A stretch of DNA of 64,000 nt from the NCBI GenBank assembly GCA_964457905.1, contig CAYWGA010000003.1, positions 684 through 64,683 of the forward strand. Direction: 5' to 3'. Under the pieces are notes generated by a model that worked only from the letters and a program-made list of their open reading frames with translations, searched no databases and was not told the origin of the DNA. Position 1 is the stretch's first letter. Each line of letters opens with the position of its first letter. The position numbers and the translations under genes are program-made. Shown piece after piece: positions 4,450-63,727 of the stretch. The stretch is from an uncultured bacterium. Lineage in GTDB: Bacteria; Krumholzibacteriota; Krumholzibacteriia; Krumholzibacteriales; Krumholzibacteriaceae.

Positions 4450-4786
4450 GCCCTGCCGGTCCCGGTTTTTCTGCGGATATTTCCCCAGTTTTTCATTCTC
4501 AACACTAATCCATTGTAATAAAAGTATTTAACCTTCTATTCGGGGCCTTTTGGACCGGATTCTATAGGGGAAATTCCCCATTTGAAGGGTGCTTCATTAC
4601 TTGAAATTCCTGCAGATCAATGTCTTATCAAGATTTACACGAATTCCTCAATCTCTACTCCAGTCAGGTGCCGCAACGTTAACATGTTGAATTACAACGA
4701 GTAAGCTTGAAGTAGATCTGTCGGTCCTGCCCGATTGCGAGGGGTCCTGTGCCTGCATGGCCGCTATCGGCCTGTGTCAGCAGGGT

Positions 4787-4803
4787 ACGGGGAACACCCA
4801 TTG
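4787..4803 (+). promoter_or_regulatory. weak candidate sigma-54 promoter (GGGAAC-N5-TTGCA; obeys the GG-N10-GC rule) 50 nt upstream of the T9SS metallopeptidase gene
   Basis: Sequence GGGGAACACCCATTGCA. The -12 element is perfect and the -24 element is partial. A 7-bp hairpin (CAAGGAT/ATCCTTG) follows. Confidence 0.2.
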
Positions 4804-4852
4804 CAGTTCCCATAGGCAAGGATTATTGCGATCCTTGTGCGCGGGCTTGTAT

Positions 4853-5938
4853 ATGGACAGGGAGAACCTGTTGAGAAATAAAGTAGTTATCTACATTGCA
4901 CTGGCAATCGCCGCCCCTCTTTTCGCCGTTCCGGGAACACTGGCAGCGGAGGATTTTACCCACTTCTATGCCCTGGATAACGGCTCAACAGTAACCGTTT
5001 ATCCTCCTGAAGGCATACTTTCGGAGATGACAGAGCGCGACGAGTCCGGAAACCTCGTGTTCTATCCAGAGGGTGGAGGGTTCTACTATCTGATAGAAGA
5101 TATCTCCAGCCCGCTGATAATGAACAAGGGAGCGGGCGAGTTCTTTCCGATGAGCGAAGACCTCGTAATGCAGGCTCTCAGGGAGATCGATATCGATGGA
5201 CGTGCTGTCGAGATGCATATCGATGTCTACATACTGCCGCTGCCGAGGCTCTATTTCATGAGCAGCACCTCGACCGGCTGCCGGATCTTTCTGTCGCCCG
5301 GAGTCTGGGATATCCCCGCATCGATAGTATCGAGTGTAGTGACGCACGAGTTCGGGCACTGCTATCAGAAGGCATACCTGCCCCATGATGATACGGAAGG
5401 GTGGACCCGGTATCTCGGCATCAGGGGGCTGCTCGATGATCCGGAAATCTCAGAAAGTTCGAGCCATATGAACAGGCCGAGCGAGATCTTCGCCGAGGAT
5501 TTCCGCGTGCTCTTCGGCGGGGAACTGGCTGATTATTCAGGAATGCTCGAGAATCCCGGCCTTGTTCATCCTGATGAAGTCGCCGGACTCAGGGATTTCA
5601 TGATCTCTCTTGCCGGTCCGGTCGGAACTGTCGATGTTCCGGCAGGCGGAGAAGTCATCGCATCGGTCGGAAACTACCCCAACCCGTTCAACCCGGTCAC
5701 AACGATCAGGGCCGCATTCAACGGGCAGGAGATCACCAGGGAAGTGAGCGTCAAGATCTACGCAGCGAACGGTTCCCTCGTCAGGGATCTCTGGTCGGGG
5801 ACCGTATCACAGCAGACTTTTGAAAAGACCTGGGACGGGATGAACGACTTCGGGAGCCGCGCCGCGAGTGGGATATATTTCTATCGAGTGACCGCAGGCT
5901 CCGATCTCCGCACAGGGAAGATGCTGCTCGTACGTTGA
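4853..5938 (+). CDS. secreted zinc metallopeptidase-like protein (HEXXH) with T9SS C-terminal sorting domain
   Basis: HEFGH motif. Signal peptide starts at the internal ATG (MDRENLL ...). The C-terminus YPNPFNPVTTI ... ASGIYFYRV is the T9SS CTD signature. The ORF track's upstream extension (4757) lacks a signal peptide. Confidence 0.6.
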   Translation: MDRENLLRNKVVIYIALAIAAPLFAVPGTLAAEDFTHFYALDNGSTVTVYPPEGILSEMTERDESGNLVFYPEGGGFYYLIEDISSPLIMNKGAGEFFPMSEDLVMQALREIDIDGRAVEMHIDVYILPLPRLYFMSSTSTGCRIFLSPGVWDIPASIVSSVVTHEFGHCYQKAYLPHDDTEGWTRYLGIRGLLDDPEISESSSHMNRPSEIFAEDFRVLFGGELADYSGMLENPGLVHPDEVAGLRDFMISLAGPVGTVDVPAGGEVIASVGNYPNPFNPVTTIRAAFNGQEITREVSVKIYAANGSLVRDLWSGTVSQQTFEKTWDGMNDFGSRAASGIYFYRVTAGSDLRTGKMLLVR

Positions 5939-6983: not shown

Positions 6984-7205
6984 GTTTCCTTTCGGAAGTG
7001 ATGATAGTGAATATAATCGGAAAGCCCAAAGGGAAAAAGGAGGCGAGGTGCTGCGTCAATCGGGGGGATTATAGAAGAGTAAGGTATTCCCCCGGTGGAT
7101 TCACACTTGCCCGACACGAGGGAAAGTCATACAATCATGCTCACTGGCGGGAATGCTGTCAGCCTCGCAGTCGTATGTAAACATTTGAACGGGGGTAGCT
7201 TGCCG

Positions 7206-8582
7206 ATGAGCAAGAGAGTCCTGGTAGTAGATGATGAAACAAGTATAAGAACCTCGCTCGAGAAGCTTCTTTCTTATGAAAAATACAAGACGCTCTCCGC
7301 GCCCGACGGTCCTTCCGCAATCGAGATCGTGGCCGATGAGAGGGTCGATATAGTCCTGCTCGATATCAAGATGCCAGGCATGGACGGGCTCGAAGTGCTT
7401 CAGAAACTCAAGGAGATGAGGGAAGAGCTGCCGGTTATTATCATCTCCGGACACGGCAATATCTCCACTGCTGTCGAGGCTACCAAGCTGGGAGCCTTCG
7501 ACTTCATAGAAAAGCCGATTGATCTCGACAGGCTCCTGCTCACAGTAAGAAACGGGCTGACGCAGGGTACACTGAGCCAGCAGAACGTCGAACTCAGGGG
7601 AAGGATCCCGGGCGGTACGGAGATCGTCGGCGAACATCCATCGATCAAGGATATCCTCGAGACGATCAACCGTGTGGCTCCGACAGGAGCCAGGGTGCTG
7701 ATCATGGGAGAGAATGGTTCAGGCAAGGAGCTTGTCGCGAGAAAGCTGCACGAGCTCAGCAAAAGGAATACCGAATCGTTCATCGAGGTGAATTGCGCGG
7801 CCATCCCCGAGGAACTGATAGAGAGCGAGCTGTTCGGCCACGAGAAGGGATCGTTCACCGGCGCAGTATCAAAGAGGATCGGAAAGTTCGAGCTTGCCGA
7901 CGGAGGGTCGCTCTTTCTCGATGAAGTCGGTGACATGAGCCTTTCGGCACAGGCGAAGGTCCTTCGCGTCCTTCAGGAATCAGTGTTTGAAAGGGTCGGT
8001 GGGACAGAGACTAAAAAAGTCGACGTCAGGGTGATCGCCGCGTCCAACAAGAATCTCCTTGAGGAAGCGGGAAAGGGAAACTTCCGCGAGGACCTCTTTT
8101 ACAGACTCAATGTCGTTCCTGTCGAGATGCCGCCCCTGCGGGACCGCAGGTCCGACATACCGATGCTCGTTTCGCATTTTCTCGATCAGGTCGCCGTTGA
8201 GCTCGGGGCCGCTCCGAAGAAGGTAGACAAGAAAGCCCTTGAGCTGATGGTCGAATACTCCTGGCCGGGGAATGTCAGGGAGCTTAGAAACCTTATCGAG
8301 AGGCTCTGTATCCTGACGCTTACCGACAACATCACACGCGAGGACATGCCTCCTCTCGTGCTGACGAGGGAAGAGGATATGATGAAGGACCCGTTTGGAC
8401 TCCAGACGTACCAGGAGTTCAGGGACTTCACCGAGCGGGAGTTCCTCGTCAAGAAGCTGCGGGAGAACAACGGCAACGTATCGAAGACAGCGAGACAGCT
8501 CGGAATGCAGCGCAGCAATCTCTATAAAAAGCTCGAGAAGTACAGCATCGACCTGCGCGGAGACAAGGATGAAGTGGACTAG
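7206..8582 (+). CDS. sigma-54-dependent response regulator (NtrC family: REC + AAA+ sigma-54 activator + Fis-type HTH)
   Basis: REC domain (VLVVDDE ... DIKMPGMDG), GENGSGKE Walker A, GAFTGA-like loop (GSFTGA), and a C-terminal HTH. The start is set at the internal ATG, where the REC domain begins. No histidine kinase is adjacent. Confidence 0.85.
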   Translation: MSKRVLVVDDETSIRTSLEKLLSYEKYKTLSAPDGPSAIEIVADERVDIVLLDIKMPGMDGLEVLQKLKEMREELPVIIISGHGNISTAVEATKLGAFDFIEKPIDLDRLLLTVRNGLTQGTLSQQNVELRGRIPGGTEIVGEHPSIKDILETINRVAPTGARVLIMGENGSGKELVARKLHELSKRNTESFIEVNCAAIPEELIESELFGHEKGSFTGAVSKRIGKFELADGGSLFLDEVGDMSLSAQAKVLRVLQESVFERVGGTETKKVDVRVIAASNKNLLEEAGKGNFREDLFYRLNVVPVEMPPLRDRRSDIPMLVSHFLDQVAVELGAAPKKVDKKALELMVEYSWPGNVRELRNLIERLCILTLTDNITREDMPPLVLTREEDMMKDPFGLQTYQEFRDFTEREFLVKKLRENNGNVSKTARQLGMQRSNLYKKLEKYSIDLRGDKDEVD

Positions 8583-8828
8583 GGAGCACTCGGCCGCGAA
8601 AGTACTTACGGGCAGATTGCCGATAACTCGGAATAATTCGCATATATCTTACGTATGAGACAGTCTATCTTGCAAAAAATCTGACAAACCGGTCAACTTC
8701 TGATTTTTCATAGATTTTTCTTCCTAAAAATTTGACAGACGCCATTTCGGGAATTATTTTTAGACTGTGGGTGCTATGGGTGTGACGGGTCTTTTTGGAA
8801 CAGGGTAGTTCCATGAGGAGATTAGGTT

Positions 8829-9143
8829 ATGAAGAGAACGGTTCTTCTTCTCGCCATTCTGATGGCGGTTTCCCTTACTTCAGTATCGCAGGTCCATGCC
8901 TTGCCTGTAGCAGGCGAAAAGGCAGTGGCCGTATCCAGCTGGCTCTCATACTATTTTGCCAACTTCCTGAGAGCGCATCGTCACAACCTTGGCGAGGTTG
9001 ATGACAGGATCATCGTTGATACTGGAGACGACGTAATGCTTCGTGGGGACGCCGATGATTACGCGAATGGCAGAGCAGATGAAGAAAAGGATGTTGATCT
9101 TCTCGGCTCCGGTGACGACAAACGGAGTACGGGGATCAAGTAA
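8829..9143 (+). CDS. small secreted acidic protein (signal peptide, Asp-rich mature part), hypothetical
   Basis: MKRTVLLLAILMAVSLTSVSQVHA signal peptide. The mature part is about 80 aa and rich in D/E. A sigma-70-like TTGACA-N17-TATTTT lies upstream. Only 64 nt separate it from the next gene. Confidence 0.45.
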   Translation: MKRTVLLLAILMAVSLTSVSQVHALPVAGEKAVAVSSWLSYYFANFLRAHRHNLGEVDDRIIVDTGDDVMLRGDADDYANGRADEEKDVDLLGSGDDKRSTGIK

Positions 9144-9207
9144 ATACTAGCGGTCTACTTACGGGCTCTACCGGTAATTCGCCATTTGCCACTTAAGGAG
9201 TTAACCG

Positions 9208-12200
9208 ATGCCTGACGGCCCGCAAGGTAAAGAGAATTACGAATACGACAAGAACCAGCCGAGGCATAAGTTCAAGTCCACCGGCACGGAGGAAGAACTC
9301 GGCGACATGCATCTGTCGACCGAGAACTACTCCGTGGCGCTTGAGTATTATGACAAGGCCCTTCAGAAGGTCCAGACCGCTGGCAACGGTGCAAGCGATC
9401 TTGTCAGAGTCTATCGAAAAATAAGCGACTGTTACCGTAAAAAGGGACTACTGCGCGAAGCGATGTCTTTCCTCGACAGCGCCGCTACTCATTGTGAGGA
9501 AGAGGACCTTATAGGCAAGGGCACTATTGCGTGCCGGCGCGGGATAATCCTCTACGAACGCGGAGATGTCAAGCATGGTCTCAGGGAGGCCTGCTCAGCA
9601 TACAGGATCCTGCGCACGAGCGACGAGCACAGGGAAGTCGCTCATACGCAGCTTCTGATCGCGAACTGCTACGCCAGGCTGGGACGAAGCGACGAGGCTG
9701 AGCAGTATTTCCTCGACGCCCTGTCCTCTTACAGAAGGATAGGGGATACCGTCGGTGAGTCATACGTACTGAATAACCTCGGGCTGTTCCACAAGAACGC
9801 CTGCCGCTGGGGCAGGGCTCTCCAGTTTCTCGGCAGGGCGCTGGAGATCTGTGACGAAGTCGGCCTGACCCAGCACAGGGTCAGAGTGACGCTCAACATG
9901 GGCATCGTTCACCTGAAGAAACGTGACTTTGCCGGTGCCGAGAGCGCGTTCGTCTCCTCAAGGGATATGGCCAGGCGGATCGGCGACGATCTCAAGTACA
10001 CCAAGTCCACCCTTATGCTGGGCGTCAAGGAGACGAGAACGGGGAACCTGCTGGCTGCCGAGAAGCACCTTCTCGAGGCCCGGGTCACCGCCGAGCGGAG
10101 AAATTACCAGCGGGAGACAGCTCTTGCTGACGAGTTTATAGGCGACCTGATGTTCGAGAGAGGCGACCTTGAGGGCGCGCTCGAGAATTACACGATCGCC
10201 CTGAAGTCCGCTTCAAGGACAAATCCTCAGAGCGACGTTGTCGCCGAGGTGCAGCGCCGGATGATGAACGTCTACCTCGTCCAGAGAAAGGCCGAGGAAG
10301 CGCTTGCCATCGGCAGCCGCGCCATCGAGACGTGCCGGCGCAGCGGCGAGCTCCACGAGATCGGATACGTTGAGAGAATGATCGGCCAGGCTCTTGCCAT
10401 ACAGAAGAAAGAGACCGAGGCCGAGAAGAAGATAAACATGAGCATCAGGACCTTCCTGTCGGTCAACAACCCTTACGAAGCTCACAAGTCGGGGGTCATC
10501 CTCGGTGAGCAGCTGTTCCGCAGGGGAGACAGAAGGTCGGCAGTTATGGCGAGGAAACTCGTCGGTGAGACCGTTTCGTTCTTCGAAAGGAACGAGGAGT
10601 ACGCCGACCTGGCCGAGAGCCATTTCCTCCTCGCCAGGATCGAGGATATCCTCGGCAACAGGGACGAATGCCTGCTGCACCTTTTCGACGCGCAGCGGCT
10701 CGCGGAAGAACTTCACGACCGCAATCTCATCAGACGCCTGCGCCGGATGCGCAGGAAGATAGAGAGCGATGTGGCGGGACCGCACGGGGCGCCTGGCAAG
10801 GAATTCGGCCAGTCCGGTATGGACGGGACATTCCTGCAGGATCCCCAGTTGAAGTCGTATCTCGACTACATCCTCAGCGACCTGATGAGAAAGCTTTCCG
10901 CGGGTCATGGATTCGTCGCACTTACCGACGGTAATGGAAGCGAGCCGGTAGTGCTTGCCCGCCGCGGTATCGGTGACGTTGAGACGAAGGGGATCACCGA
11001 ATGGTTCCTCGCGAGGGACGAGGCTGATTCCACTGAGAAATTCCTCGTGACCGACACGGCCAATGATCGCCGGGTCAGGGAGATCTTCGGACAGCTTCCC
11101 GGTGGCGATTCTCCCGCATACTTCCATCCTCTCAGCAGGGGAGGGAGGAACTTCGGACTCCTGTTCTTCCAGTCGGAAGGGAACGAGGGAGCTCCGAGCG
11201 TCGGATCGATCTTCGAGATCGTTTCCACGTACGCCGGCTTTATCGACTTCCTCATCAGGGGATCGATCAAGGGCACCATGCCTCTGCCGGGCGGCAGCGC
11301 TGATGCTGACCACAGTTTCAGCGGGATCATAACGAGCGATGAGAAGATGCTCAGGATCCTCGAACTTGCCGGCAAAGTCGCTGTGAGTGACTCCACCGTT
11401 CTGCTCATGGGTGAGACGGGAACGGGCAAGGGCCTCGTGGCCCAGGCTATCCACGACATGAGCAAGAGGCGGGACAAGAAGTATATTCATGTTAACTGCG
11501 CCGCGCTTCCCGAGACCATTCTCGAGAGCGAACTTTTCGGTCACGTAAAGGGTTCCTTCACCGGGGCCATTTCGGACAAGAAGGGACTGCTCACTGAAGC
11601 GGACGGCGGAACGATATTCCTCGATGAGATCGGCAAGACTCCTCTTCCGATCCAGGGCAAGCTCCTTCAGTTCCTCGATACGAGGAAGGTCAGGCCTGTC
11701 GGCAGCAACGAGATGCAGGACGTCGATGTCAGGCTTATCTTCGCTTCCAAAGTCGACCTTCTGCAACTGTGCGGCGCCGGCCGGATGCTCGAGGACTTCT
11801 ACTACAGGATCAACGATTTTCCTTTGACGATTCCGCCTCTGCGCGAACGCAGCGGGGACATTCCTCTCCTGGCGAGCCACTACCTGCGGGCCGTCTGTTC
11901 CGCTATGGACAAGAAGATCATCGGGTTCAGCGACGACGCGGTCGAGTTTCTCAAGAGTTGTGACTGGCCTGGAAACGTCCGGGAACTCGGAAAGATCATC
12001 AAGCGCGCGGTCATACTGGCCGAGGACAACGGTGTGATCACTCCGCAACAGCTCGTCTTCGACCTTTCCGGTAACAGTTGCGAGACGATCGATTCGTCCG
12101 CATCCCTGCCGGACATGGTCAGGGAACTGGAGAGAAAGATCGTAGCGGAGGCTCTCGGCAGAAACGACTGGAACAGGAAGGCCGCCGCGGCCGACCTGGG

Positions 12201-12255
12201 CATCAGCTATCCTACTCTTCTCAAGAAGATCCGTGACTACGGACTCGTCGAGTAG
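9208..12255 (+). CDS. large TPR-repeat / GAF / sigma-54-interaction-domain transcriptional activator (enhancer-binding protein, 1015 aa)
   Basis: N-terminal TPR-like repeats, a central GAF-like region, GETGTGKG Walker A, GSFTGA motif, and a C-terminal Fis-type HTH. AAGGAG lies 7 nt upstream of the ATG. Confidence 0.8.
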   Translation: MPDGPQGKENYEYDKNQPRHKFKSTGTEEELGDMHLSTENYSVALEYYDKALQKVQTAGNGASDLVRVYRKISDCYRKKGLLREAMSFLDSAATHCEEEDLIGKGTIACRRGIILYERGDVKHGLREACSAYRILRTSDEHREVAHTQLLIANCYARLGRSDEAEQYFLDALSSYRRIGDTVGESYVLNNLGLFHKNACRWGRALQFLGRALEICDEVGLTQHRVRVTLNMGIVHLKKRDFAGAESAFVSSRDMARRIGDDLKYTKSTLMLGVKETRTGNLLAAEKHLLEARVTAERRNYQRETALADEFIGDLMFERGDLEGALENYTIALKSASRTNPQSDVVAEVQRRMMNVYLVQRKAEEALAIGSRAIETCRRSGELHEIGYVERMIGQALAIQKKETEAEKKINMSIRTFLSVNNPYEAHKSGVILGEQLFRRGDRRSAVMARKLVGETVSFFERNEEYADLAESHFLLARIEDILGNRDECLLHLFDAQRLAEELHDRNLIRRLRRMRRKIESDVAGPHGAPGKEFGQSGMDGTFLQDPQLKSYLDYILSDLMRKLSAGHGFVALTDGNGSEPVVLARRGIGDVETKGITEWFLARDEADSTEKFLVTDTANDRRVREIFGQLPGGDSPAYFHPLSRGGRNFGLLFFQSEGNEGAPSVGSIFEIVSTYAGFIDFLIRGSIKGTMPLPGGSADADHSFSGIITSDEKMLRILELAGKVAVSDSTVLLMGETGTGKGLVAQAIHDMSKRRDKKYIHVNCAALPETILESELFGHVKGSFTGAISDKKGLLTEADGGTIFLDEIGKTPLPIQGKLLQFLDTRKVRPVGSNEMQDVDVRLIFASKVDLLQLCGAGRMLEDFYYRINDFPLTIPPLRERSGDIPLLASHYLRAVCSAMDKKIIGFSDDAVEFLKSCDWPGNVRELGKIIKRAVILAEDNGVITPQQLVFDLSGNSCETIDSSASLPDMVRELERKIVAEALGRNDWNRKAAAADLGISYPTLLKKIRDYGLVE

Positions 12256-13240
12256 GGCTGCGACCTTTCCGATCTAATCCAGCCAATCAAACAACAGGGC
12301 GCTGAAGTAAGGGTGCATTTGGACCTTATTCATCTAAATTCAATATATTTCAATAAAATCAGGGAGTGGCACGGCCAGCACCGCGGTCATTCTGACGGAA
12401 TACCGGCATGGCCCGTTTTCAGGGGCAAGCTCGTTGTCTCTTCAATTTGTTCTCAGGCACAGCGTTACGACCGGACCGCGAGGTGTGTAAAGGGTCTTTA
12501 TTCTGAAATTCCGACGGTCACGGGACATAAGATTTAGCGCAAAAGTACTGCTCTGTAACATGTTGTATACAGGAGAGTTAGGCCATATCTACGTCCGGCT
12601 GCCGATCTGCGGTTTTGGAACGATGCTTGCCCTTTGATATAACCGGTATCGGTTGGCGAATGGGAAGTGGCAAAACCGGAGAGACGTAGAGATTTCGATC
12701 CCATAAGCTCTCTTATGAAGCTTGAAATAGGGTACAGGTGGGGTCTCTAGGGAATGAAATCTCAAACATCTCTCCGGTAATTTTTTATCCAAAAAAACAC
12801 CCGTAAAACACCTCATTATATAAATTAAACTTGACTCTGAGTGACCCAAATCATTTATACTTAGTATTGTCAGGGGTGTGAGATACCTAAGGAATGGCGA
12901 GATCCATAGGAATGCGAGTATGGACATCCCCTCCGGTGCTCGCGTCTCGTGCCCCTGGCGTTTTTGTATCCGCTCCAGGATCCCCTCACAGACCATCCCG
13001 AACCAGGACTGACTCCTGACACCTGGCCCTGGAAGAGCTTGAGCGCCTTTTATGATTCTGTCCTGTTTCGGGGACGAAGGTGTGGAATAGATACGACAAT
13101 TGACAGGCCTCACAGACATCCCCGGAAGCCCTGGTCCGCAGTCCCTCTGATCTTAGACTGATTTTTAACAACTTGCCGAATAACACTTTCCAAAATTCAA
13201 ACGGTCAATTTCGAACCGCTTTTTGAGCTTCATAAAAGCG

Positions 13241-13256
13241 TGGCACGGCAGTTGCG
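13241..13256 (+). promoter_or_regulatory. sigma-54 (RpoN) promoter, TGGCAC-N5-TTGCG
   Basis: Near-consensus -24/-12 elements, TGGCACggcagTTGCG. The predicted transcription start is about 13267, 3 nt before the ATG of the lipoprotein gene. Confidence 0.5.
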
Positions 13257-13269
13257 TTTACATGTCAAC

Positions 13270-14259
13270 ATGATGAGAGCAGGTAAGGCACATAAAGCAT
13301 CAAAAGTATTGGCTACGATCCTTATCGCTGGTTTTTTGTTCATATCCTCCTGCGCGGAGGATCAGATCGTTGAAGTGCCGGTGGAGGTCCCAGCGGATTG
13401 TCCTCCATCGGCACCTCGCGGTGTCTACGCAGTCAATCTTGATGGCTACGTATTGATCTGCTGGTATCCGAACCCCGAGGACGACATCGTGGGTTATGAC
13501 ATATGGAAGAACGACGAAGCTTATGGAACTTATGAATGGATCGGCGACGTAGACACTGAGTCTCCGGAGCCTTACGAATATTGTTTTGATTACGACATGC
13601 CGAACGGTACTCAGTCCTATTACGCGGTGACCGCATATGACAGTAACGACCAGATAAGTGACCTGAGCTACGAAGTGATAAGCGCAACGCCGAGGCCCGA
13701 AGGATTCATGGCTCTTTACGATGAGGCGGTGCACTCCGATTCCTGCGGCTATGATTTCTCTTCACAGAGCAACATAGCTCAGGACTGCACACTGCCTTCG
13801 ACCGACATAGTGTTCGATACGACAGGCGGAGTGAACACATTCACGGTCAATATGCCGAGCGTGATGATCCAGGATTACGGATATACTTACAGTTTCGACG
13901 ATATCAATTACGCGCCCGAACTGGGATGGTCCGATGCGGGCATGGTAGAAGTAATAGAGAGTCACTGCTATTTGATGAGGCTCGGCGAGGCTGACGGCCA
14001 GCACTACGTGAAACTCTGGATCTACAGTGTCGGCGATGGTGCAGTCGATTTCTGGTGGGCATATCAGACCGATCCTTACAACCCGGACCTGATGCCCGGA
14101 CAGCCCGAAAGCAGCACAACGATTACATCCGGTTCCGAAACAACCGGTGGAATAAAGATTATGAATGGTTTTCCGAATGGTCGACGAGTCGTCCCGACGT
14201 CAAACTCGGGCAAACAGGACGAAGATAGAATCCTGCAGCGGCAGAACACCTTACCTTAA
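13270..14259 (+). CDS. lipoprotein with Fn3-like W-Y-P-N-P-E region, hypothetical
   Basis: MMRAGKAHKASKVLATILIAGFLFISSC is a lipoprotein signal ending in a lipobox Cys. The ORF track's GTG start at 13240 lies inside the sigma-54 -24 element and is therefore rejected. Confidence 0.55.
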   Translation: MMRAGKAHKASKVLATILIAGFLFISSCAEDQIVEVPVEVPADCPPSAPRGVYAVNLDGYVLICWYPNPEDDIVGYDIWKNDEAYGTYEWIGDVDTESPEPYEYCFDYDMPNGTQSYYAVTAYDSNDQISDLSYEVISATPRPEGFMALYDEAVHSDSCGYDFSSQSNIAQDCTLPSTDIVFDTTGGVNTFTVNMPSVMIQDYGYTYSFDDINYAPELGWSDAGMVEVIESHCYLMRLGEADGQHYVKLWIYSVGDGAVDFWWAYQTDPYNPDLMPGQPESSTTITSGSETTGGIKIMNGFPNGRRVVPTSNSGKQDEDRILQRQNTLP

Positions 14260-14303
14260 GCTGGCACTTAAATAAGGTTCCGTTACCCGGAAGGTCGACC
14301 GAA

Positions 14304-14372
14304 GGGGAGAGTGAAGAAAGCGATTGCTGAACAGGGGCGGCAAGAGATCTTCACTCTCCCCGACTTTTTTCT
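14304..14372 (+). terminator. rho-independent terminator (14-bp perfect stem GGGGAGAGTGAAGA/TCTTCACTCTCCCC plus T-run)
   Basis: Inverted repeat at 14304-14317 and 14348-14361, followed by GACTTTTTTCTC. Confidence 0.7.
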
Positions 14373-14424
14373 CATACCTCATTTGGCTTGATGAGTCCCG
14401 GACATAACCTTATTATTCATCGTC

Positions 14425-17400
14425 ATGCGTATACCTGCATTATTGATAAGGATATTCATCGCCGCTTTCGCAGCGGCCGCTTTCTCAGGTACCGTCACGG
14501 CCGCACAGGACGTGAACGATATCCCTGCGATGCCTAAGGGGAGGCCTGCCGGCATTTATCAGCAGGAGGCGCTCTCAGGACTGCTCGCGGGAAGCTTCGA
14601 CACACCTGACACCCTCCGGCTGCTCGTGATAAGGGTTTCCTTCTCCGATATGGATTTCACTTCCCCTCCGCATGATTCGCTCTATTTTGCCAACGAGATG
14701 AGGCATACCTGGGAATACTTCAGGGGAGCCTCAGTCGGCGCGTTCGGCCTCGGATGGGAGATCGCTGCCGGAGTGACCACGCTCAGCTTCGATGCGGCCT
14801 ACTACGGCCAGGACGATATCTGGGAGGAGAGGGTTGCGGAGATATTGATGGAAGCGGTCGCGAAGAATGACGACGAGATCGATTTCTCTCTCTTTGACGC
14901 TTTCGCTCTGATCCATCCGGGAGCGGGGCAGGAGACGGATTTCTCAGGCGATTCCCCGTGGCAGCTCTGGTCCGGATTTATCGACCCTGTCGAGATGGAG
15001 GCTGTTCTTGCCGATACCCTGGGAACGCCCGGGGTCCCCACGAACGACCTGGTGGCGGGAGACACCTTCTACGTAGATAACGTCATGGTCCTGCCGGAGA
15101 ACTCATCTCAGGACGGACTCGTATTCGGGTCCCTCGGTATTTATGCCTACCAGGTCGGGATGAGGCTCGGGATGATCCCGATGTACGACACGACTCCTTC
15201 GGGCTATCCCGATTCCCAGGGGATAGGGGCGTTCGGCCTTATGGGCTACGGCCTCTACAACGCTTCAGGTTTCATACCGGCATTTCCATGCGCTTTTCAC
15301 AGATACCTGATGGGGTGGATCGAGTCCGTACCGATCGAGTATGCCGGCCCGATCGATCTCAGAGACATCAATTCATACATTCCGTCGGATACTTCTCTGG
15401 CAAGGATCGAGATAAATCCTACCGAATACTTTCTGATATCCAACAGGGTGCACGACGGGAACATGAACGGCCGGTTCGATTTCGGCGACGTTAACAGCGA
15501 TGGTATCCCTGCCAATGAAGATACTCTCCTCGGCGCCGAGTTCGATTTCTTCCTCACCGCTACCACGAATCCGTTCGATTACGTGGATGTCGGCGGCGAA
15601 CAGGTCAAGATCGTCGATACGGGCAGCGGTATAATAATCTGGCACATAGACGAGACTATAATAAGGAACCAGCTGAGCATCGGCCGATATCCCAACGACA
15701 ATCCCGGCATCAGCGGCGTGGACCTCGAGGAGGCCGACGGCGTGCAGGACCTCGACAAGCCCGGCGGAAGCCATGCCTTCGGCAGCTGGGGCGATTCATA
15801 CAGGGCGGGGTGGTACGACGGATTCGGGCCGGAGACGATGCCGGCGAGTTTCGCAAATACCGGGACACCCACCGGAGTGGGCATAACTGCCCTTTCCGTT
15901 CCGGGTCCGGTGATGAGTATCTCGGTTTACCTGGGCGAGGATCTTCCCCGCGTGACGGGGGAGATCGACGGGACCGTGATGGGGCTTCCGCCGATCGTCG
16001 TGAACCTCGATACTGACCCGGAAGAGGAACTGATCCAGGCCGCCGACACGGGGAAGATATACATAGCATGGGATGCCGGCGTGGAGTCGTGGGATGGCTC
16101 GTTTGATCTTGCTGTCGATATACCGGGAGCTGTCTGGTCGGGGGCGCCGATAGCAGCGGACCTCGATGGAACGCCTCCGATGGAGATACTGGCCGGGTCC
16201 AGTGACGGAAGGATACACGCGTACAGGACAGACGGCACGCCTTATCCGATCGATACCGATGAGTCAACAGGATCACTGGATGTAAAAGGAAATATCGTGA
16301 GCATGCCGATGGCTTTCGAGGCGGATGGAGACCCCGGGCTCGAAACTGTGTTTCTCGTTTCAGACGGAGACACGTCATGGATGTATATCGTCGGCCATGC
16401 TCACGCGAATGATCTGGACGGAGGATTCATCACCGGCAACGGGGTCTTCGGTATTGTCATCACTTCAGGCAGGGTGATCGCTCATCCGGTCCTCTGCGTC
16501 GACGACAGCAATCCGGATGCCGGCGGATTCTGCACCGCCGCAAGCGGCCCTGACGGGTATATGAGATTCATACATATCGAGCTTTCACACGATTCCCCCG
16601 GACTGGCCGTGACCTCCTGGAGCATGGAGGGGAGTTACGAGCCGGAGGATCTGATCCTTCCCGCAGCCGGCGATATAGACGGCAACGGCACCGATGACAT
16701 GGTCCTGGCGATTCCGGGCGGAGACATCGTCTATTTTGATATCAACAGGGGCGCTGAGGCGTCAGCTCTCGATCTGGTACGGCCATCACCGCCTTCGCTG
16801 GCCGATATAGACGGGGACGGTATCCTTGAGACGATGATCCGCGGCCGTGAGGGGCTGTTCCTCCTTACAGGTTTCGGAACGACCGTATCGGGATGGCCGG
16901 TAGGACTCGAAGAATATCTTGTCGTGCTCGAACCGGACACGACGCCCGCCCAGCCTGCGGCTGCCGACGTGGATGGAGATGGAGATCTCGAGGCGGTCTT
17001 CAACGTCGCCGGAGAGCTGCGTGCATACAGTTTCGATGCCAGGCTCGAGGATGGGTGGCCGCTGCGGGGCGAAGGCGATAATTCGATTACGCCCGCTTTT
17101 TCATCGGGCGCCGGTTCAAAGATGTTCATATATACTTCCGGTGGATCCGGCGGGATAGCGGGGCCTAACCAGACAGGGACTGTCTTCTTCCCCGGGGTCT
17201 CTACAGTGTCGCGTATCGATCCCGGAACTTCGTGGGACGGTACGGGGGCATGGCCGGCATACCGCATGGATCCCCTCGGCACATCGAGGCAACTTAAGCC
17301 GGGCGGCGATAACACCGCAGGCCCGCTTGTCGATGAGAATTCGATGATATGTTATCCAAATCCTGCGACAGGGTCCTCCTTCAATCTGCGTTTGACTGTT

Positions 17401-17616
17401 TCAGGCATGGCCGATGTGACTGTAAGGCTCTTCAACCTTGAGGGTGCCGAGGTCTATTCCTCCAGCTCGAAACATGAGTGGTCAGGAGGCAGCGTGCCGT
17501 TCGAGACCAGCGTGCCGACAGAAGGCCTAGCGAGCGGAATATATCTCGTACATATAAGTGTGAAGGGCGAGGGAGAGGACTGGAGCGGTTCGAGAAAGGT
17601 CGCGATACTCAAGTAA
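14425..17616 (+). CDS. large secreted FG-GAP/VCBS-repeat protein with T9SS C-terminal sorting domain
   Basis: Signal peptide. Several DxDGDGxxE/D calcium-binding FG-GAP-like repeats (DIDGDGILE, DVDGDGDLE, DIDGNGTDD). The C-terminus is a T9SS CTD (ICYPNPATG ... SGIYLVHI). Confidence 0.7.
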   Translation: MRIPALLIRIFIAAFAAAAFSGTVTAAQDVNDIPAMPKGRPAGIYQQEALSGLLAGSFDTPDTLRLLVIRVSFSDMDFTSPPHDSLYFANEMRHTWEYFRGASVGAFGLGWEIAAGVTTLSFDAAYYGQDDIWEERVAEILMEAVAKNDDEIDFSLFDAFALIHPGAGQETDFSGDSPWQLWSGFIDPVEMEAVLADTLGTPGVPTNDLVAGDTFYVDNVMVLPENSSQDGLVFGSLGIYAYQVGMRLGMIPMYDTTPSGYPDSQGIGAFGLMGYGLYNASGFIPAFPCAFHRYLMGWIESVPIEYAGPIDLRDINSYIPSDTSLARIEINPTEYFLISNRVHDGNMNGRFDFGDVNSDGIPANEDTLLGAEFDFFLTATTNPFDYVDVGGEQVKIVDTGSGIIIWHIDETIIRNQLSIGRYPNDNPGISGVDLEEADGVQDLDKPGGSHAFGSWGDSYRAGWYDGFGPETMPASFANTGTPTGVGITALSVPGPVMSISVYLGEDLPRVTGEIDGTVMGLPPIVVNLDTDPEEELIQAADTGKIYIAWDAGVESWDGSFDLAVDIPGAVWSGAPIAADLDGTPPMEILAGSSDGRIHAYRTDGTPYPIDTDESTGSLDVKGNIVSMPMAFEADGDPGLETVFLVSDGDTSWMYIVGHAHANDLDGGFITGNGVFGIVITSGRVIAHPVLCVDDSNPDAGGFCTAASGPDGYMRFIHIELSHDSPGLAVTSWSMEGSYEPEDLILPAAGDIDGNGTDDMVLAIPGGDIVYFDINRGAEASALDLVRPSPPSLADIDGDGILETMIRGREGLFLLTGFGTTVSGWPVGLEEYLVVLEPDTTPAQPAAADVDGDGDLEAVFNVAGELRAYSFDARLEDGWPLRGEGDNSITPAFSSGAGSKMFIYTSGGSGGIAGPNQTGTVFFPGVSTVSRIDPGTSWDGTGAWPAYRMDPLGTSRQLKPGGDNTAGPLVDENSMICYPNPATGSSFNLRLTVSGMADVTVRLFNLEGAEVYSSSSKHEWSGGSVPFETSVPTEGLASGIYLVHISVKGEGEDWSGSRKVAILK

Positions 17617-17664
17617 ATACTGATATCGGAGGATTTACGGCACGGGCGCCTTGTTGCGTTGATG

Positions 17665-17693
17665 TTGACCCGGGCGGCTTTATTTACTACAAT
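17665..17693 (+). promoter_or_regulatory. sigma-70-like promoter TTGACC-N17-TACAAT upstream of the PorV/PorQ-like gene
   Basis: The -35 and -10 hexamers have 17-nt spacing. The promoter lies after the preceding gene's stop. Confidence 0.35.
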
Positions 17694-17722
17694 ATATGGA
17701 GATGGCTATGAATGGAGGAAAG

Positions 17723-18643
17723 ATGTTCCGCAAGTCAGTATTACTGGCCGCAGCACTTTTAATATCGATGACGGTCTTTGCCTCGGCGGGAGAGCCGGGC
17801 TCTTCCGGTTTCACATTTCTCAGGCTGGGAAACGGAGCGAGAGCTGGAGGTATGGGTGAAGCATTCACCGCCGTCGCCGACGACGCGACCAGTATCTACT
17901 ACAACCCAGCGGGAATGGCGGCTGTCGAGGAAGTAGAGCTCACCCTGACCCATACCGAATGGCTGATGGACATAAGGTTCGAGCAGGCAACCGTAGCGAA
18001 CGAGATGTGGGGCGGGGTAGGGGGGCTGAGCTTTACGGGCCTCTATTACGGCAGCATGGACAGGTACGGCGAGTACCCGTCTCTTACTCCGGACGGGACC
18101 TTCTCTCCATACGATATGGCGCTGTCACTCGGATACGCGAGGGATATCATCCCCAACGTCGCCATCGGAGCGGCATTCAAGATGATCTATTCGAAGATCG
18201 ATTTCGAATCGGCCACCGGATATGCTTTTGACCTCGGTGTAACCCACAGGTCGAAGATCGAGGGCCTTATCATCGCCGCGTCGATGCTGAACCTCGGGCC
18301 CCAGACCAGTTTTGTGGAAGAGAAGTTCTATCCTCCCTTCCAGCTGAGGCTCGGCGGCGCTTATGAGATCAGGAAAGAGGCTCTGCGCGGCGGGATCATC
18401 CTGGCCGCGGACGTGATCTTCCCCAACGATAACGATACCAAGACACATTTCGGCCTCGAGTACGCCTACGAGAAGATGCTTATGGTGAGGTTAGGCTACA
18501 AGGCCGGGTATGACGTCCAGGGCGCTACGATGGGAGCCGGTATCGCGTGGAAGAGCCTGAGGTTCGATTACGCTTACATGCCGGTCGATTTCGAGCTGGG
18601 CGACGCTCACAGGTTCTCTCTGACCGTGTCACCTTCGCTCTGA
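17723..18643 (+). CDS. FadL/OmpP1-like small outer-membrane beta-barrel, PorV/PorQ family (T9SS-associated)
   Basis: Signal peptide MFRKSVLLAAALLISMTVFASA. The N-terminal GxGARAGGMGEAFTAVADDATSIYYNPAG matches the FadL/PorV family signature. The gene lies immediately downstream of T9SS cargo. The start is chosen downstream of the promoter. Confidence 0.55.
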   Translation: MFRKSVLLAAALLISMTVFASAGEPGSSGFTFLRLGNGARAGGMGEAFTAVADDATSIYYNPAGMAAVEEVELTLTHTEWLMDIRFEQATVANEMWGGVGGLSFTGLYYGSMDRYGEYPSLTPDGTFSPYDMALSLGYARDIIPNVAIGAAFKMIYSKIDFESATGYAFDLGVTHRSKIEGLIIAASMLNLGPQTSFVEEKFYPPFQLRLGGAYEIRKEALRGGIILAADVIFPNDNDTKTHFGLEYAYEKMLMVRLGYKAGYDVQGATMGAGIAWKSLRFDYAYMPVDFELGDAHRFSLTVSPSL

Positions 18644-19801: not shown

Positions 19802-20129
19802 ACGCACTGAATAGCGTTTTTGGACGGAATAGCGTAACTTATCAAATATAGGGGTATTATACTATTGACAGACTTACAGGTTTCGTGTAAACTGTCTTAC
19901 GTATTGGTTTCAGGTGCCTTAGTGAGCCTGGTCGGGCCGCCGGGCACCAACAACTTGTACAGCCCCACCAAAAAAAATTGAACAATTCGTCAACTAGTGT
20001 GTATACAGAAATAGGAGCAATTAAGAAGAACTCTTAATTAGCTCGGGCGAAAGGGAAAAGGGGCAAGGGAAACTGTAGAGAAGATGGCTGGAAAACGAGG
20101 AATCTTAGGCAGCCACCTTTACATAACCG

Positions 20130-21099: not shown

Positions 21100-21218
21100 T
21101 ATCTGCCTGATGGTACGTGATTTGCAGAAAAACGGGTGGTAAATACTCCTTGACAGGGAGTGGACTCAAACGTAGTTTCTGGTATCAACGGGAATCATTT
21201 AACGCTTTGACCGGAAAA

Positions 21219-41557: not shown

Positions 41558-44500
41558 ATGAGGAAAGCCTTAGTAGTATTACTGGGCGTTTGCCTCCTTG
41601 CCCTGTTTGTCGGTTCCGTGTCGGCGCGTGAGATCGACAGAAGCGGCATTCGTGCCATGAAGGACGTCTCCGAGAACCCTGCTCTCATCGATGCGGGTCT
41701 CCAGACTCTCATGGCCTCTGCTGCTGCTGACACATACTGCATCGTATGGTACGACTTCGAGCAGATGGTATGGCAGGGTTGGACGAGCACTGATAACACG
41801 GCTCAGGTAGATATGTTTTTCCACGTTGACGATTTCGCCGGTCTCGGCGGCGGTGACTTCGGTCGCCTCGTGCCGATCGAAGGAACAAAGTCACTGTGGT
41901 GCGGTACCCCTCCGGGAACCGACTTCTACATGTGTTCGTGGTACAACGCTCCTGGTTATGGTAATGGTTGGAATCAGATCACTTATTCGGATCCCTTCTC
42001 CTTTGTCGGGCTCCTGACCTGGTCCTTTACCATTGTTGTCGATTCAGAGCCTGACTGGGATCAGACCCTGATCGAGTACGACGCTGGTGACGACAACTGG
42101 GTGGAGATCACTCGTTACGACGGAGTAGACACTCTGTACGTAGCCGAGCAGCTTCTCCTTGCCCAGGCTGCCACCAAGCTTCGTTATCACTTCATCGCCG
42201 ATGGCGCCTGGTCGGATCAGGATGGTCTCTACGACACCGATGGTGCTTGCATCATCGATGAGATCGAGATCACAGATTCCGGCGGCGTAATTGACTATGA
42301 GGACTTCGAGAGTTATGCCGATGGTGCCCAGGGTATCCTCGGAATCTGGCATACGGCAATAGAAGACGCCTTTGGCGACTATGCTGGTCTCGCGAACAAC
42401 CTCGTTGATAAAGATCCCTGCTCCGATAACTTCGGTACGCAGGTCATGTTCTTCAACGGTTCTTCGTATCCCAGTGCCGATTATCCCGGACTCTTCGATA
42501 CTCCGTTCTGCACGGGTCCCGGCGGAATCTCCGCTCCGTGTCAGGATCAGGCAATTACATCGCCTGTCATCGACATGTCGATGTACTCAATGGCTTGTGA
42601 TGAGACCCAGGACACCGCGATACCTGCTGGCGACGCTTCGCAGCTTGGTGGCGCAGTCCTGAGATTCACCGCATACCGCGATATTCCGCTGTCGAACCTC
42701 GTGTTCTACACCTGGTCAGTCCGTAACATCGATGAAACGGGTTGCCCGGGACAGTGGATGGACCGTAACTTTGTCTACTACGGTGGTGACAAGGATTACA
42801 TCTTCGGCGGCTTCGATGTCTCCGACCTCGTTGGTCCGGACCCGATGCAGATCACCGTTGGTGTATCCGATATGTGTGACGCCTGGTACGGTGTCTATGG
42901 TGACTGCGCGGCTCATACGCCTTCACCTTGGATTGACAATGTACGGATGTACCGCTACAAGACAATCGGTCCGTCCTGGAGCGTTCGTAACCTGGATCTC
43001 TTTCAGGATACGTTCCCCCAGGAAGTTCTTGCTAGCAGCGACCCGATGGAAGAGTTCTGCCGCGTCGATATGTCGAACGACATCGCCCCTGGCGAAGAGT
43101 TCACACGCATCGATCCGGGCGACTCAGCTGTCGTACAGGTTGCGGCTCCTCTCGCTGGCGGCCTCGATACCCTGGCCACCGGTGAAGCAAGAGTCTACTG
43201 CCTCGTTAACACCACATTCCTCGGTCTCGACGGAAAGCCGGACCTCTTCGGCCCGACGCTTGCGGGAACCTACGGAACGTACGTAATTGACGACGGCAAC
43301 TGGACGACCTTCCTTATGGAGCCTGCCGCTACTTCGGCCGGCAACATTGCACCCGACAAGTACTGCATCGATCTCAATGACTCGCTGTTCACACGCGGTT
43401 ATATGATCGAGTATTACTTTACGGCATACGAGTTCGGCGGCGCCTCCTCGAACTTCCCCGCATCTGCGCAGGAAGCCGACGGCAATCGCTATGAGCTCAC
43501 CTGTCTGCCGACCCTGAGGGTCGTTCCGGGCGTACTGTACTGCGACGATTTCCACAACCGTGGAACGTTCGTTGGAACACCTGAGCAGTACTTCTGGCCT
43601 GCGTTCGAGGCTGTCGTTTCAGCCCCGATCGATATGCCGGACAGGTACGACACCAACGGACCGTCCTCCGGTGTCAGCAACGGCATTGGCGCCTACACTT
43701 CGGTGACGGACGCCTCGTCGATATTCTGTACCGCCTACGAGAAGGTCATCCACGACTCCGGCGATCTCAACTCGGTAACGATTACCGAGGGTACCGAGAA
43801 CTCCGACAAGTCGAACGATGCCCAGCTGCTCGTAGACTGGATGAACGTTTCCGAGCACAAGGTCGGACTCCTTGTAATGGGCGACCAGGTCGCCTACGAC
43901 CTTTCACTGTCAGCTGCTGCCGTCTCTCTTGAGCTCGTCAGCACGATCTGCGGTGTCACGCTCGACAACAGCAGTTACTACGACATGACCGGTGGCCGCG
44001 AAGCCGGCGGCGTTGTAACTCCTCTCATCACTGGTACAACAGGCGGCCCGTACGCTGGACTTTCGTACTATGCCTACGGGGGCTGCCCGGTCGTCAACAA
44101 CTTCGACGTTCTCGAGATCACAGGCCCTGGCCAGTACGCGCTTGAGTATCCTATATACAACAGCCTGTCGTACTATGCTGGTATCTACACAGACCAGCTG
44201 AACAACGCCAGCCAGCCTCTCAGGACCGTCTGGGTCGGACACAGCTTCCAGATCATCCGTAATGCCTCGAACACCGTCGCTGCCAGGAACGAGTTCCTGC
44301 AGATGACGTATAATCTCTTCGAGAATCCTGTCGGTGTGGATATAACCGACAGCGAGCCGACTCCGATGGCATACGGCCTCGCGCAGAACTTCCCCAACCC
44401 GTTCAACCCGTCGACGCGGATCCAGTTTGCGATGCCCACCAAGGGTCACGTAAGCCTGAAGATCTACAACGTGGCTGGACAGTTGGTCAAGACTCTGCAG

Positions 44501-44647
44501 AATGGTGTCATGGATGCTGGTTCTCATGAGCTCACCTGGGATGGATCGAACAACCTGGGTAGCAACGTTGCTTCTGGCGTTTACTTCTACAAAATAAACG
44601 CTGGCGACAACTACGAGAACATGAAGAAGATGGTTCTTCTCAGGTAG
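41558..44647 (+). CDS. giant secreted protein (1029 aa) with T9SS C-terminal sorting domain, hypothetical
   Basis: Signal peptide. Cys-rich and Asp-rich regions. The C-terminus is NFPNPFNPSTRIQF ... SGVYFYKI (T9SS CTD). Confidence 0.7.
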   Translation: MRKALVVLLGVCLLALFVGSVSAREIDRSGIRAMKDVSENPALIDAGLQTLMASAAADTYCIVWYDFEQMVWQGWTSTDNTAQVDMFFHVDDFAGLGGGDFGRLVPIEGTKSLWCGTPPGTDFYMCSWYNAPGYGNGWNQITYSDPFSFVGLLTWSFTIVVDSEPDWDQTLIEYDAGDDNWVEITRYDGVDTLYVAEQLLLAQAATKLRYHFIADGAWSDQDGLYDTDGACIIDEIEITDSGGVIDYEDFESYADGAQGILGIWHTAIEDAFGDYAGLANNLVDKDPCSDNFGTQVMFFNGSSYPSADYPGLFDTPFCTGPGGISAPCQDQAITSPVIDMSMYSMACDETQDTAIPAGDASQLGGAVLRFTAYRDIPLSNLVFYTWSVRNIDETGCPGQWMDRNFVYYGGDKDYIFGGFDVSDLVGPDPMQITVGVSDMCDAWYGVYGDCAAHTPSPWIDNVRMYRYKTIGPSWSVRNLDLFQDTFPQEVLASSDPMEEFCRVDMSNDIAPGEEFTRIDPGDSAVVQVAAPLAGGLDTLATGEARVYCLVNTTFLGLDGKPDLFGPTLAGTYGTYVIDDGNWTTFLMEPAATSAGNIAPDKYCIDLNDSLFTRGYMIEYYFTAYEFGGASSNFPASAQEADGNRYELTCLPTLRVVPGVLYCDDFHNRGTFVGTPEQYFWPAFEAVVSAPIDMPDRYDTNGPSSGVSNGIGAYTSVTDASSIFCTAYEKVIHDSGDLNSVTITEGTENSDKSNDAQLLVDWMNVSEHKVGLLVMGDQVAYDLSLSAAAVSLELVSTICGVTLDNSSYYDMTGGREAGGVVTPLITGTTGGPYAGLSYYAYGGCPVVNNFDVLEITGPGQYALEYPIYNSLSYYAGIYTDQLNNASQPLRTVWVGHSFQIIRNASNTVAARNEFLQMTYNLFENPVGVDITDSEPTPMAYGLAQNFPNPFNPSTRIQFAMPTKGHVSLKIYNVAGQLVKTLQNGVMDAGSHELTWDGSNNLGSNVASGVYFYKINAGDNYENMKKMVLLR

Positions 44648-63452: not shown

Positions 63453-63727
63453 GTCCTGAATCGTCTGCTGTATTCTGCGGCGCTGAGTCTCGGCATGGAA
63501 AAGAGATTCATGTGTCTACGGTGGATAATCGGCCATGAAAAGGCCGATATTTGGGCCGCTTTTAGTTCAACATATTGTAGAAACAGCAGTTAGCGAGCCC
63601 CAATCATACCCCTGAGCCTGAAAAGGGCACTGGGTAGGTATGTCCCCATACGGACGGATAAGCTTCATCTGGGCCGGTTAAGACGGTTCCGAATGTGGCA
63701 TATACCTTGCCCCTGTATAGGTGAATC

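Follow-up and report, generated by a model that had tools for sequence, protein, structure and literature searches.

A sigma-54 regulatory island was found in the window, a stretch of 64,000 nt (contig CAYWGA010000003.1) of chromosomal DNA from a Krumholzibacteriota-like bacterium of the Fibrobacterota-Chlorobiota-Bacteroidota (FCB) group. It comprises the genes for an NtrC-type response regulator, a small secreted protein and a sigma-54 activator with tetratricopeptide repeats (TPR), followed by a gap of about 1 kb and a lipoprotein gene. This island, with its two enhancer-binding proteins, is genuine and conserved across uncultivated Krumholzibacteria, and we consider it fairly probable that it forms a conserved regulatory module in which small RNAs (sRNAs) encoded in the gap are the central outputs and one of them, RNA1, feeds back onto the TPR activator. 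A signal would render an enhancer-binding protein active, most likely the TPR protein because its gene always accompanies the sRNA, and this activator would switch on sigma-54 transcription of RNA1. The 5' end of RNA1 would then base-pair with the TPR activator mRNA over its start codon and so reduce translation of the activator, a negative feedback of the LuxO-Qrr type. RNA1 may reach the long 5' untranslated region (UTR) of a neighbouring RpoD-like sigma factor gene as well, and the lipoprotein promoter is probably driven, through a TGTCC-N8-GGACA enhancer, by the NtrC-type regulator, whose kinase would be encoded elsewhere.

Six contigs found via the lipoprotein have the same gene order, from RlmN (minus strand) to the M23 peptidase/amidase, down to 42% lipoprotein identity, and in all six the space between the TPR activator and lipoprotein genes measures 0.9-1.1 kb. 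Further loci were added by scanning species-level genomes and metagenomes, and more than 20 Krumholzibacteria contigs show the arrangement in synteny. The NtrC-type regulator is present in synteny at every related locus, and the TPR activator lies 5' of the lipoprotein homologue in all of them but L010. The lipoprotein has 210 homologues, mostly from Krumholzibacteria, and public records name lipoprotein homologues Candidatus Krumholzibacteria. The coordinates of the features are given in Table 1.

Table 1. Features of the sigma-54 island and its surroundings (window coordinates unless a locus is named; RNAs, promoters and enhancers are predictions)
Feature	Position	Strand	Details
NtrC-type response regulator/sigma-54 activator, REC + AAA+ + HTH_8	7206-8582	+	PF00072, PF00158, PF02954
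Sigma-70-type promoter of small-protein/TPR-activator operon	TTGACA 8732-8737, 17-nt spacer, TATTTT 8755-8760	+	alignment, 7 loci
Small secreted protein, 104 aa	8829-9143	+	Sec signal peptide, invariant GDADDYANG motif
RNA1-complementary region at TPR activator start	9171-9212	+	CCGGT 9171-9175, TTTGCCACTT 9185-9194, Shine-Dalgarno AAGGAG 9195-9200, AACCGATGCC 9203-9212
TPR-type sigma-54 activator, 1015 aa	9208-12255	+	PF13424, PF17874, PF00158, PF02954
Enhancer-like region upstream of RNA1 promoter	12425-12567		palindromes GCAAGctcGTTGTC 12425-12438, TAAAGggtCTTTA 12488-12500, TGTAACatgTTGTA 12554-12567
Sigma-54 promoter of RNA1, TGGAAC-gatgc-TTGC	12616-12630	+	predicted start ~12642
RNA1, predicted sigma-54-dependent small RNA, ~145 nt	~12642-12786	+	25-sequence alignment
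Sigma-70-type promoter of RNA2	TTGACT 12831-12836, TATACT 12856-12861	+	alignment
RNA2, small RNA, ~97 nt	~12869-12965	+	three-way junction, 15-bp closing stem, U-run
Candidate lipoprotein enhancer	13059-13098		tandem TGTCC-N8-GGACG 13059-13076, TGTGG-N8-CGACA 13081-13098; conserved in lineage A
Sigma-54 promoter of lipoprotein gene, TGGCAC-ggcag-TTGCG	13241-13256	+	predicted start ~13267
Lipoprotein, 329 aa, FN3-like N-terminal part, no named family	13270-14259	+	lipobox ...FISSC
RNA3, structured 3' element of lipoprotein transcript, ~140 nt	14233-14372	+	terminator GGGGAGAGUGAAG...CUUCACUCUCCCC + U6
Sigma-70-like promoter of cargo gene, TTGATG-N17-TATTAT	14388-14416	+	conserved in 5 loci; ATG 8 nt past -10
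Type IX secretion system cargo, 1063 aa: M6-like metalloprotease domain, FG-GAP repeat, type A sorting domain	14425-17616	+	
PorV/PorQ-family outer-membrane barrel, 315 aa	17696-18643	+	NF033709
RpoD-like sigma gene, long conserved 5' UTR	promoter TTGACA-N17-TAAACT 19866-19894; ATG 20167		
Lineage-B sigma-54 RNA	L009 9385-9720; L023 4479-; L028 4306-; L029 9338-		same position as RNA1

Candidate small RNA genes in the intergenic gap

An earlier reading of the same DNA, made from its letters and open reading frames (ORFs) and hereafter called the original prediction, had described the gap (12256-13269) as non-coding. This is correct in that no protein gene is present, and falls short in that two conserved candidate sRNA genes lie inside. 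Alignment of the gap revealed a near-invariant block of about 350 nt. Within it, RNA1 is preceded by a sigma-54 promoter of the form TGG(A/T)A(C/T)-N5-TTGC in 22 of the 25 distinct sequences (with ATGC in L018 and TTGA in L059 and L061), the spacing to the conserved 5' end being nearly constant. The 5' seed GGUAUCGGUU (12645-12654) is invariant in all 25 sequences, as is AGGUGGGGUCUCU, and the 3' end consists of a 13-bp closing helix followed by a U-run. The consensus fold contains 38 pairs (95.8% paired), 15 of them with compensatory changes; none of 500 shuffles reached the observed value, and slid controls collapsed. A covariance model built on this fold scores 169 bits on the plus strand versus 28 bits on the minus strand. 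RNA1 carries GGGA and lacks the repeated A(N)GGA loops of CsrB/RsmY-type sponges.

The dependence of RNA1 on sigma-54 is predicted from its promoter pattern. Four matches to a strict sigma-54 pattern, allowing at most one mismatch, occur in the window versus 0.97 expected, and a clade-adapted expression matches three positions, the same in nearly all syntenic loci that cover them, and almost nothing else (20-kb loci). Within the pattern TGGCAC-N5-TTGC, three sites in the window have GG and GC exactly 10 nt apart, namely the promoters of RNA1 (12616-12630) and of the lipoprotein gene (13241-13256) and a site at 21111-21126.

RNA2 follows with a promoter of the sigma-70 type, its -35 element TTGAC being present in all 23 sequences covering the promoter and its -10 element TA...T in most. 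Its loops AUGGCGAGA and CAUCCCC (12925-12931) are invariant. The fold of 23 sequences contains 32 pairs (99.6% paired), six with compensatory changes, a value reached by 0-1 of 500 shuffles, and the covariance model scores 121 bits on the plus strand versus 18 bits on the opposite strand. In L013 (4672-4742) and L014 (7963-8015), nhmmer found a partial second copy of the RNA2 3' half directly after RNA2.

No Rfam family reached its gathering score in the window, the gap gave only one noise match at E <= 10, and the covariance models of Qrr (RF00378) and other Rfam sRNA families failed to match the gap. RNA1 and RNA2, neither of which is in Rfam, would be new RNA families. Their covariance models had no matches in the distant loci L009, L010, L023 and L027-L031, which have different RNAs or none there. 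Pairing between RNA1 and RNA2 was not significant, the duplex energy being about 1.2 standard deviations below the shuffle mean. A targeted search of the literature found no paper that treats sigma-54 in Krumholzibacteriota, and the top results of a broader search contained no Krumholzibacter paper.

Predicted pairing of RNA1 with the activator mRNA

The RNA1 seed GGUAUCGGUU is complementary, by nine Watson-Crick pairs and one G-U pair, to AACCGAUGCC (9203-9212), which corresponds to positions -5 to +5 of the TPR activator and spans its AUG at 9208. This target 10-mer occurs once in the 64-kb window versus 0.18 expected, and (A/G/T)ACCGATGCC, as RNA (A/G/U)ACCGAUGCC, stands at the activator start in every locus of lineage A that contains the start. 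Two further collinear blocks in the window, AAGUGGCAAA with UUUGCCACUU and ACCGG with CCGGU, bring the duplex to -42 kcal/mol. When local initiation regions were ranked, the activator came first in 7 of 7 loci, with -33.9 versus -22.4 kcal/mol for the next one in the window.

A second lineage, B (L009/L026, L023, L028 and L029), possesses at the position of RNA1 a different sigma-54 RNA of about 310 nt, without a separate RNA2. The loop of its 5' hairpin, UCCCGUGCGU, has a perfect complement in codons 3-6 of its own activator (AUG UCU RAC GCA CGG GA; the pairing partners being UCCCGUGCGU/ACGCACGGGA), and the 9-mer CGCACGGGA occurs once per locus. Rough chance estimates for the two seed-activator matches are ~0.01 and ~0.003. 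Since two unrelated seeds each match the start of their own activator, we infer that RNA1 occludes the ribosome-binding region of the activator mRNA, and the lineage-B match is the strongest support for this predicted pairing. The LuxO-Qrr-type features predicted in silico are a sigma-54 promoter, a unique complementary 10-mer over the AUG and the lineage-B pair. In L030 and L031, labelled Eisenbacteria, TGGCA(T/C)-N5-CTGCA is followed by a GGAGGGGGGAACCUCC hairpin, which may be a third RNA variant.

Several points weigh against this feedback. In whole-locus scans by duplex energy and by pairing alignment, coding DNA included, the activator site is not consistently at the top, and it ranks poorly in L006, L008 and L024; energy is therefore not used as a main argument. 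Of the pairing, the 10-bp core alone is universal and the extended blocks are not. Because both partners are invariant, no pair-by-pair covariation can be used within lineage A. That RNA1 represses is an assumption based on where the site lies, and the starts and ends of RNA1 and RNA2 are all deduced from the sequence. For RNA2, as for the middle of RNA1, a comparison with neighbouring initiation regions in six loci gave no consistent target. Finally, an assignment of the NtrC-type regulator to the lipoprotein gene by way of L010 was rejected, the two regulators being 43% identical and the L010 upstream region being devoid of TGTCC-N8-GGACA.

These points bear on another explanation, which we regard as rather unlikely: RNA1 and RNA2 may be genuine sRNAs that act elsewhere, on distant mRNAs or by protein titration, so that the complementarity to the activator would be coincidental or secondary. 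It would account for the equal or stronger duplexes that the whole-locus scans show at other sites, and for the most conserved motif, AGGUGGGGUCUC, the sole one common to the lineage-B RNA and RNA1, for which no complement above chance exists in the window. The same search found none above chance for the C-rich loop of RNA2, and RNA2 has several GGA motifs and no neighbour that is consistently predicted as its target. RNA1 nt 10-18, moreover, are complementary to the 5' UTR of the sigma factor gene as well. Against action elsewhere speak the two unrelated seeds that match their own activators, the invariance of the RNA1 seed and its place at the extreme 5' end, and the position of the three GGA motifs of RNA2, which lie mostly within the predicted stems P2 and P3, an arrangement not expected of a protein sponge.

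The match in the sigma factor gene joins RNA1 nt 10-18 (GUUGGCGAA) to UUCG(C/U)C(A/G)AC at 19986-19994, within the ~260-nt 5' UTR. Of 11 lineage-A loci, 9 have this site, in one of two positions according to sub-lineage; the two positions flank an invariant CCCCACC that is itself complementary to the invariant GGUGGGG of RNA1. The site may serve RNA1 as a second target, or else form the spacer of a second promoter.

Activators, promoters and neighbouring genes

The original prediction saw in this island two activators acting on a single sigma-54 operon of lipoprotein, cargo and PorV-like genes, with the gap as enhancer DNA and TTGACAG-type repeats as binding sites. As a whole this model now appears improbable, and several of its parts stand. 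Both proteins are sigma-54 activators as claimed, with Sigma54_activat (PF00158, E = 8e-71 and 5e-61) and HTH_8 (PF02954) matches in Pfam, Walker A motifs (GENGSGK and GETGTGK) and a GSFTGA loop in each; the marks of NtrC-family enhancer-binding proteins (AAA+, Walker A, a GAFTGA-type loop and a Fis-type HTH) are thus found in both. The NtrC-type regulator is an orphan, as had been stated, in that no histidine kinase was detected among the scanned ORFs of the 64-kb window; rpoN was likewise not found among these ORFs. Between rlmN and the NtrC-type regulator gene, L001, L002, L004, L006 and L007 have a Ppx-GppA phosphatase gene, which overlaps the regulator gene in some relatives, e.g. L001, and is absent from the window (6984-7205; compare L001 2973-3959), L008 and L009.

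The near-consensus sigma-54 promoter that had been placed on the lipoprotein start is confirmed as TGGCACggcagTTGCG, 14 nt 5' of the ATG at 13270, and is kept in every locus covering the region, including L009 and L010. In the distant L010 it reads TGGCACatcccTTGCT, with a kinase gene and an NtrC-type regulator gene directly upstream. The ATG lies 14-15 nt past the -12 C in the clade, which predicts a leader of 0-3 nt; in distant relatives the lipoprotein leader is short and contains a Shine-Dalgarno sequence. As the cargo gene has an equally tight promoter-to-ATG spacing, near-leaderless starts may be usual in the clade.

The single operon is favoured by a real sigma-54 promoter at 13241, by the synteny and common strand of the genes and by possible read-through of the terminator. 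Opposed to it, the gap, supposed to be enhancer DNA, contains two RNA units of covarying structure, each complete from promoter to terminator, and between the lipoprotein and cargo genes lie a strong conserved terminator (14233-14372) and a separate cargo promoter, which argue against lipoprotein, cargo and barrel genes as one sigma-54 unit and leave sigma-54 control of the cargo and the PorV/Q barrel unproven. Nor do the repeats support it. Two of them are conserved, at 8676-8689 and 8726-8742, and the first reads CTGACAAAC and not the proposed TTGACAG(A/G)C. The second contains, with TTGACA at 8732, the -35 box of the TTGACA-N17-TATTTT promoter of the small-protein/TPR-activator operon, a promoter with invariant TTTGAC and TA..TTT columns in seven aligned loci, and is to be read as a promoter element and not as an activator site. 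The third one, TTGACAGGC at 13100-13108 on the 5' side of the sigma-54 promoter, shows no conservation across loci.

Conserved TGTCC-N8-GGAC(G/A) and TAAAG-N3-CTTTA palindromes are better candidates for activator binding. Upstream of the RNA1 promoter, palindromes of the types TAAAG-N3-CTTTA, CAAG…CTTG and TGTAAC…GTTGTA, in blocks conserved in 11-27 loci, are candidate activator sites, and lineage B likewise has a TAAA(N)-N1-3-(N)TTTA palindrome 5' of its sRNA promoter. No consensus RNA fold was found in the 250 nt 5' of the RNA1 promoter, so this region is treated as enhancer DNA. Upstream of the lipoprotein gene, the tandem palindromes have their centres 22 bp apart, about 165 bp 5' of the promoter, and L009, too, has TGTCC-N8-GGACA. 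Lineages A and B have both the TPR activator and the sRNA; L010 has neither and retains only the kinase, the NtrC-type regulator and the sigma-54 promoter of the lipoprotein gene. This co-occurrence fits a TPR activator that drives RNA1 and an NtrC-type regulator that drives the lipoprotein gene, an assignment we make only tentatively.

The lipoprotein has the N-terminus MMRAGKAHKASKVLATILIAGFLFISSC, and its lipobox Cys28, as read from the sequence, is invariant in 13 aligned homologues. The structured element RNA3 at the end of its transcript is represented by 19 distinct sequences and is conserved with or without coding overlap; its terminator stem covaries (one pair being AU in 11 and GC in 8 sequences), and GUUACCCGGAAGGUCGACC and GAACAGGGGCGGCA are near-invariant. 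Against Rfam at E <= 10 it gave nothing credible, only weak sub-threshold miRNA- and snoRNA-like matches to the hairpin. RNA3 could be an sRNA derived from the 3' UTR or a conditional terminator ahead of the cargo gene. The identification of that gene's product as an FG-GAP cargo of the type IX secretion system (T9SS) is borne out by PF13517, by TIGR04183 (25.0 versus a cutoff of 23) and by PF18962 at residues 977-1047 (27.5 versus 27). Its M6-like domain matches NF052323 with 188 bits, below the cutoff, and a HExxH motif was not found in the protein. The PorV/PorQ-like barrel was also recognized rightly (NF033709, 197.6 bits versus a cutoff of 90), with both the PorV and the PorQ equivalog models below their cutoffs. 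Other T9SS-type cargo genes, with FlgD_ig/Por_Secre_tail C-termini, lie at 4757-5938, 41558-44647 and 52212-53939, which makes such cargo a common feature of this genome.

Between the activator genes, the predicted 104-aa protein with a signal peptide was recovered as ORF 8829-9143, kept in synteny at 33-78% identity; it has no Pfam or NCBIfam match. The 5' UTR of its gene (8765-8828) is G-rich and strongly conserved, with a covarying hairpin GGAAC…GUUCC just 5' of the Shine-Dalgarno sequence. In the TPR activator, proposed to be a TPR, GAF, AAA and HTH protein, the TPR, AAA+ and HTH_8 parts were found and the GAF part gave a sub-threshold Pfam match only (PF13185, GAF_2, 18-21.5 bits versus a cutoff of 28.6, sub-sequence rescan included). 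A homologue search with the GAF-like segment returned one match only, a PDB sequence search returned TPR matches and no GAF, and a single-sequence AlphaFold model was unusable (predicted local distance difference test score 41.5). The suggestion of a GAF-sensed circuit accordingly rests on a sub-threshold match.

The neighbourhood of the small protein and the TPR activator also allows a quorum-like switch, in which the secreted protein or a fragment with its GDADDYANG motif would be the cue, the TPR domain the sensor, and a sigma-54 sRNA output would feed back on the activator start; this we consider improbable. As in the RRNPP family (Rap/NprR/PlcR), a TPR sensor gene stands beside a gene for a small secreted protein, probably co-transcribed, and weak PDB matches include Rap. 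Unlike in that family, the output is a sigma-54 AAA+ protein, the small protein has 104 aa and the host is diderm, which leaves a resemblance only.

Hardly credible, finally, is a reading of the conserved block as a long processed lipoprotein 5' leader, an activator 3' UTR or a small coding region: an open minus-strand frame crosses it in the window and L001, where a gene is called, and variable, possibly transcribed GC-rich hairpins lie 5' of RNA1, but RNA1 and RNA2 each come with a conserved promoter at fixed spacing and with a stem and U-run of their own, a separate promoter stands 14 nt before the lipoprotein ATG, the covariance models favour the plus strand by ~100-140 bits, and in 9 of 11 loci stop codons occur in every frame. 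By these stop codons, a small protein in the sRNA block was rejected. The minus-strand frame is a 176-aa ORF (12589-13119), called as a 196-aa gene in the L001 record (9103-9693, minus strand); it is not conserved and is probably a mis-annotation.

Farther downstream, the third conserved sigma-54 promoter, TGGTACgtgatTTGCA (21111-21126), comes after the RpoD-like gene and a terminator. A promoter of the sigma-70 type (TTGACA 21150-21155, N17, TAGTTT 21173-21178) lies 3' of it, and both precede M23 peptidase/amidase/YbbR genes, the M23 gene likely starting with the ATG at 21209 rather than with the GTG at 21117. The window also contains another sigma-54-like site, TGGCATataccTTGC (63696-63731), followed after 20 nt by the ATG (63729) of a gene for a secreted protein, which continues past the window's end. 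A scan for tRNA and tmRNA genes found none.

Relation to known sigma-54 circuits

In Vibrio, a Qrr sRNA gene adjoins the luxO activator gene, and crcZ of Pseudomonas is located immediately 3' of cbrB. Pairing with luxO mRNA is described for the Qrr sRNAs (PMC3262071), NfeR1 pairs with the initiation region of ntrB (PMC10746234), and CrcZ/CrcY and NrsZ are sigma-54-dependent sRNAs under NtrC-family activators (PMC6292655, PMC4253122). With the Vibrio LuxO-Qrr system the island shares an NtrC-family sigma-54 activator and an sRNA which, here by prediction, pairs with the mRNA of its own activator. It differs in that RNA1 shows no relation to Qrr in sequence or structure (Rfam including Qrr, E <= 10), in that RNA1 is single-copy whereas Qrr has 4-5 paralogues, in that LuxO is a response regulator of a phosphorelay and the likely activator here is a TPR/GAF-like sensor protein, and in its host, a member of an uncultivated FCB-group phylum.

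Like CbrB-CrcZ/CrcY and NtrC-NrsZ of Pseudomonas and Azotobacter, the island has a sigma-54 sRNA, and RNA1 lies directly 3' of the activator gene as crcZ does after cbrB. CrcZ, however, is a protein sponge acting via repeated A-rich motifs, whereas RNA1 has an invariant 5' seed, no such repeats and no homology to it. NfeR1 of Sinorhizobium is NtrC-repressed and LsrB-activated, not sigma-54-dependent, targets the kinase gene ntrB and is unrelated in sequence. The lipoprotein promoter resembles classical NtrC/NifA-type promoters in having GG and GC 10 nt apart, tandem TGT-N12-ACA-type dyads ~165 bp upstream and two activator genes in cis, and departs from them in the 0-3-nt leader predicted for the clade. 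By these comparisons the regulatory logic is an already known one (Qrr-luxO, NfeR1-ntrB), and what would be new are the RNA families.

To our knowledge, gene regulation in Krumholzibacteriota and the FCB candidate phyla near them is almost unexplored, and no member of these phyla has been cultured. The two or three new structured RNA families, together with their promoters and terminators, are usable for the annotation of metagenome-assembled genomes and for the reading of metatranscriptomes, and the three conserved sigma-54 promoters and candidate enhancers define the -24/-12 consensus of the clade. The predicted pairing between RNA1 and the activator mRNA is short and specific, and in this predicted pairing seed and target co-vary between lineages, so that an sRNA circuit has seemingly arisen outside the Proteobacteria.

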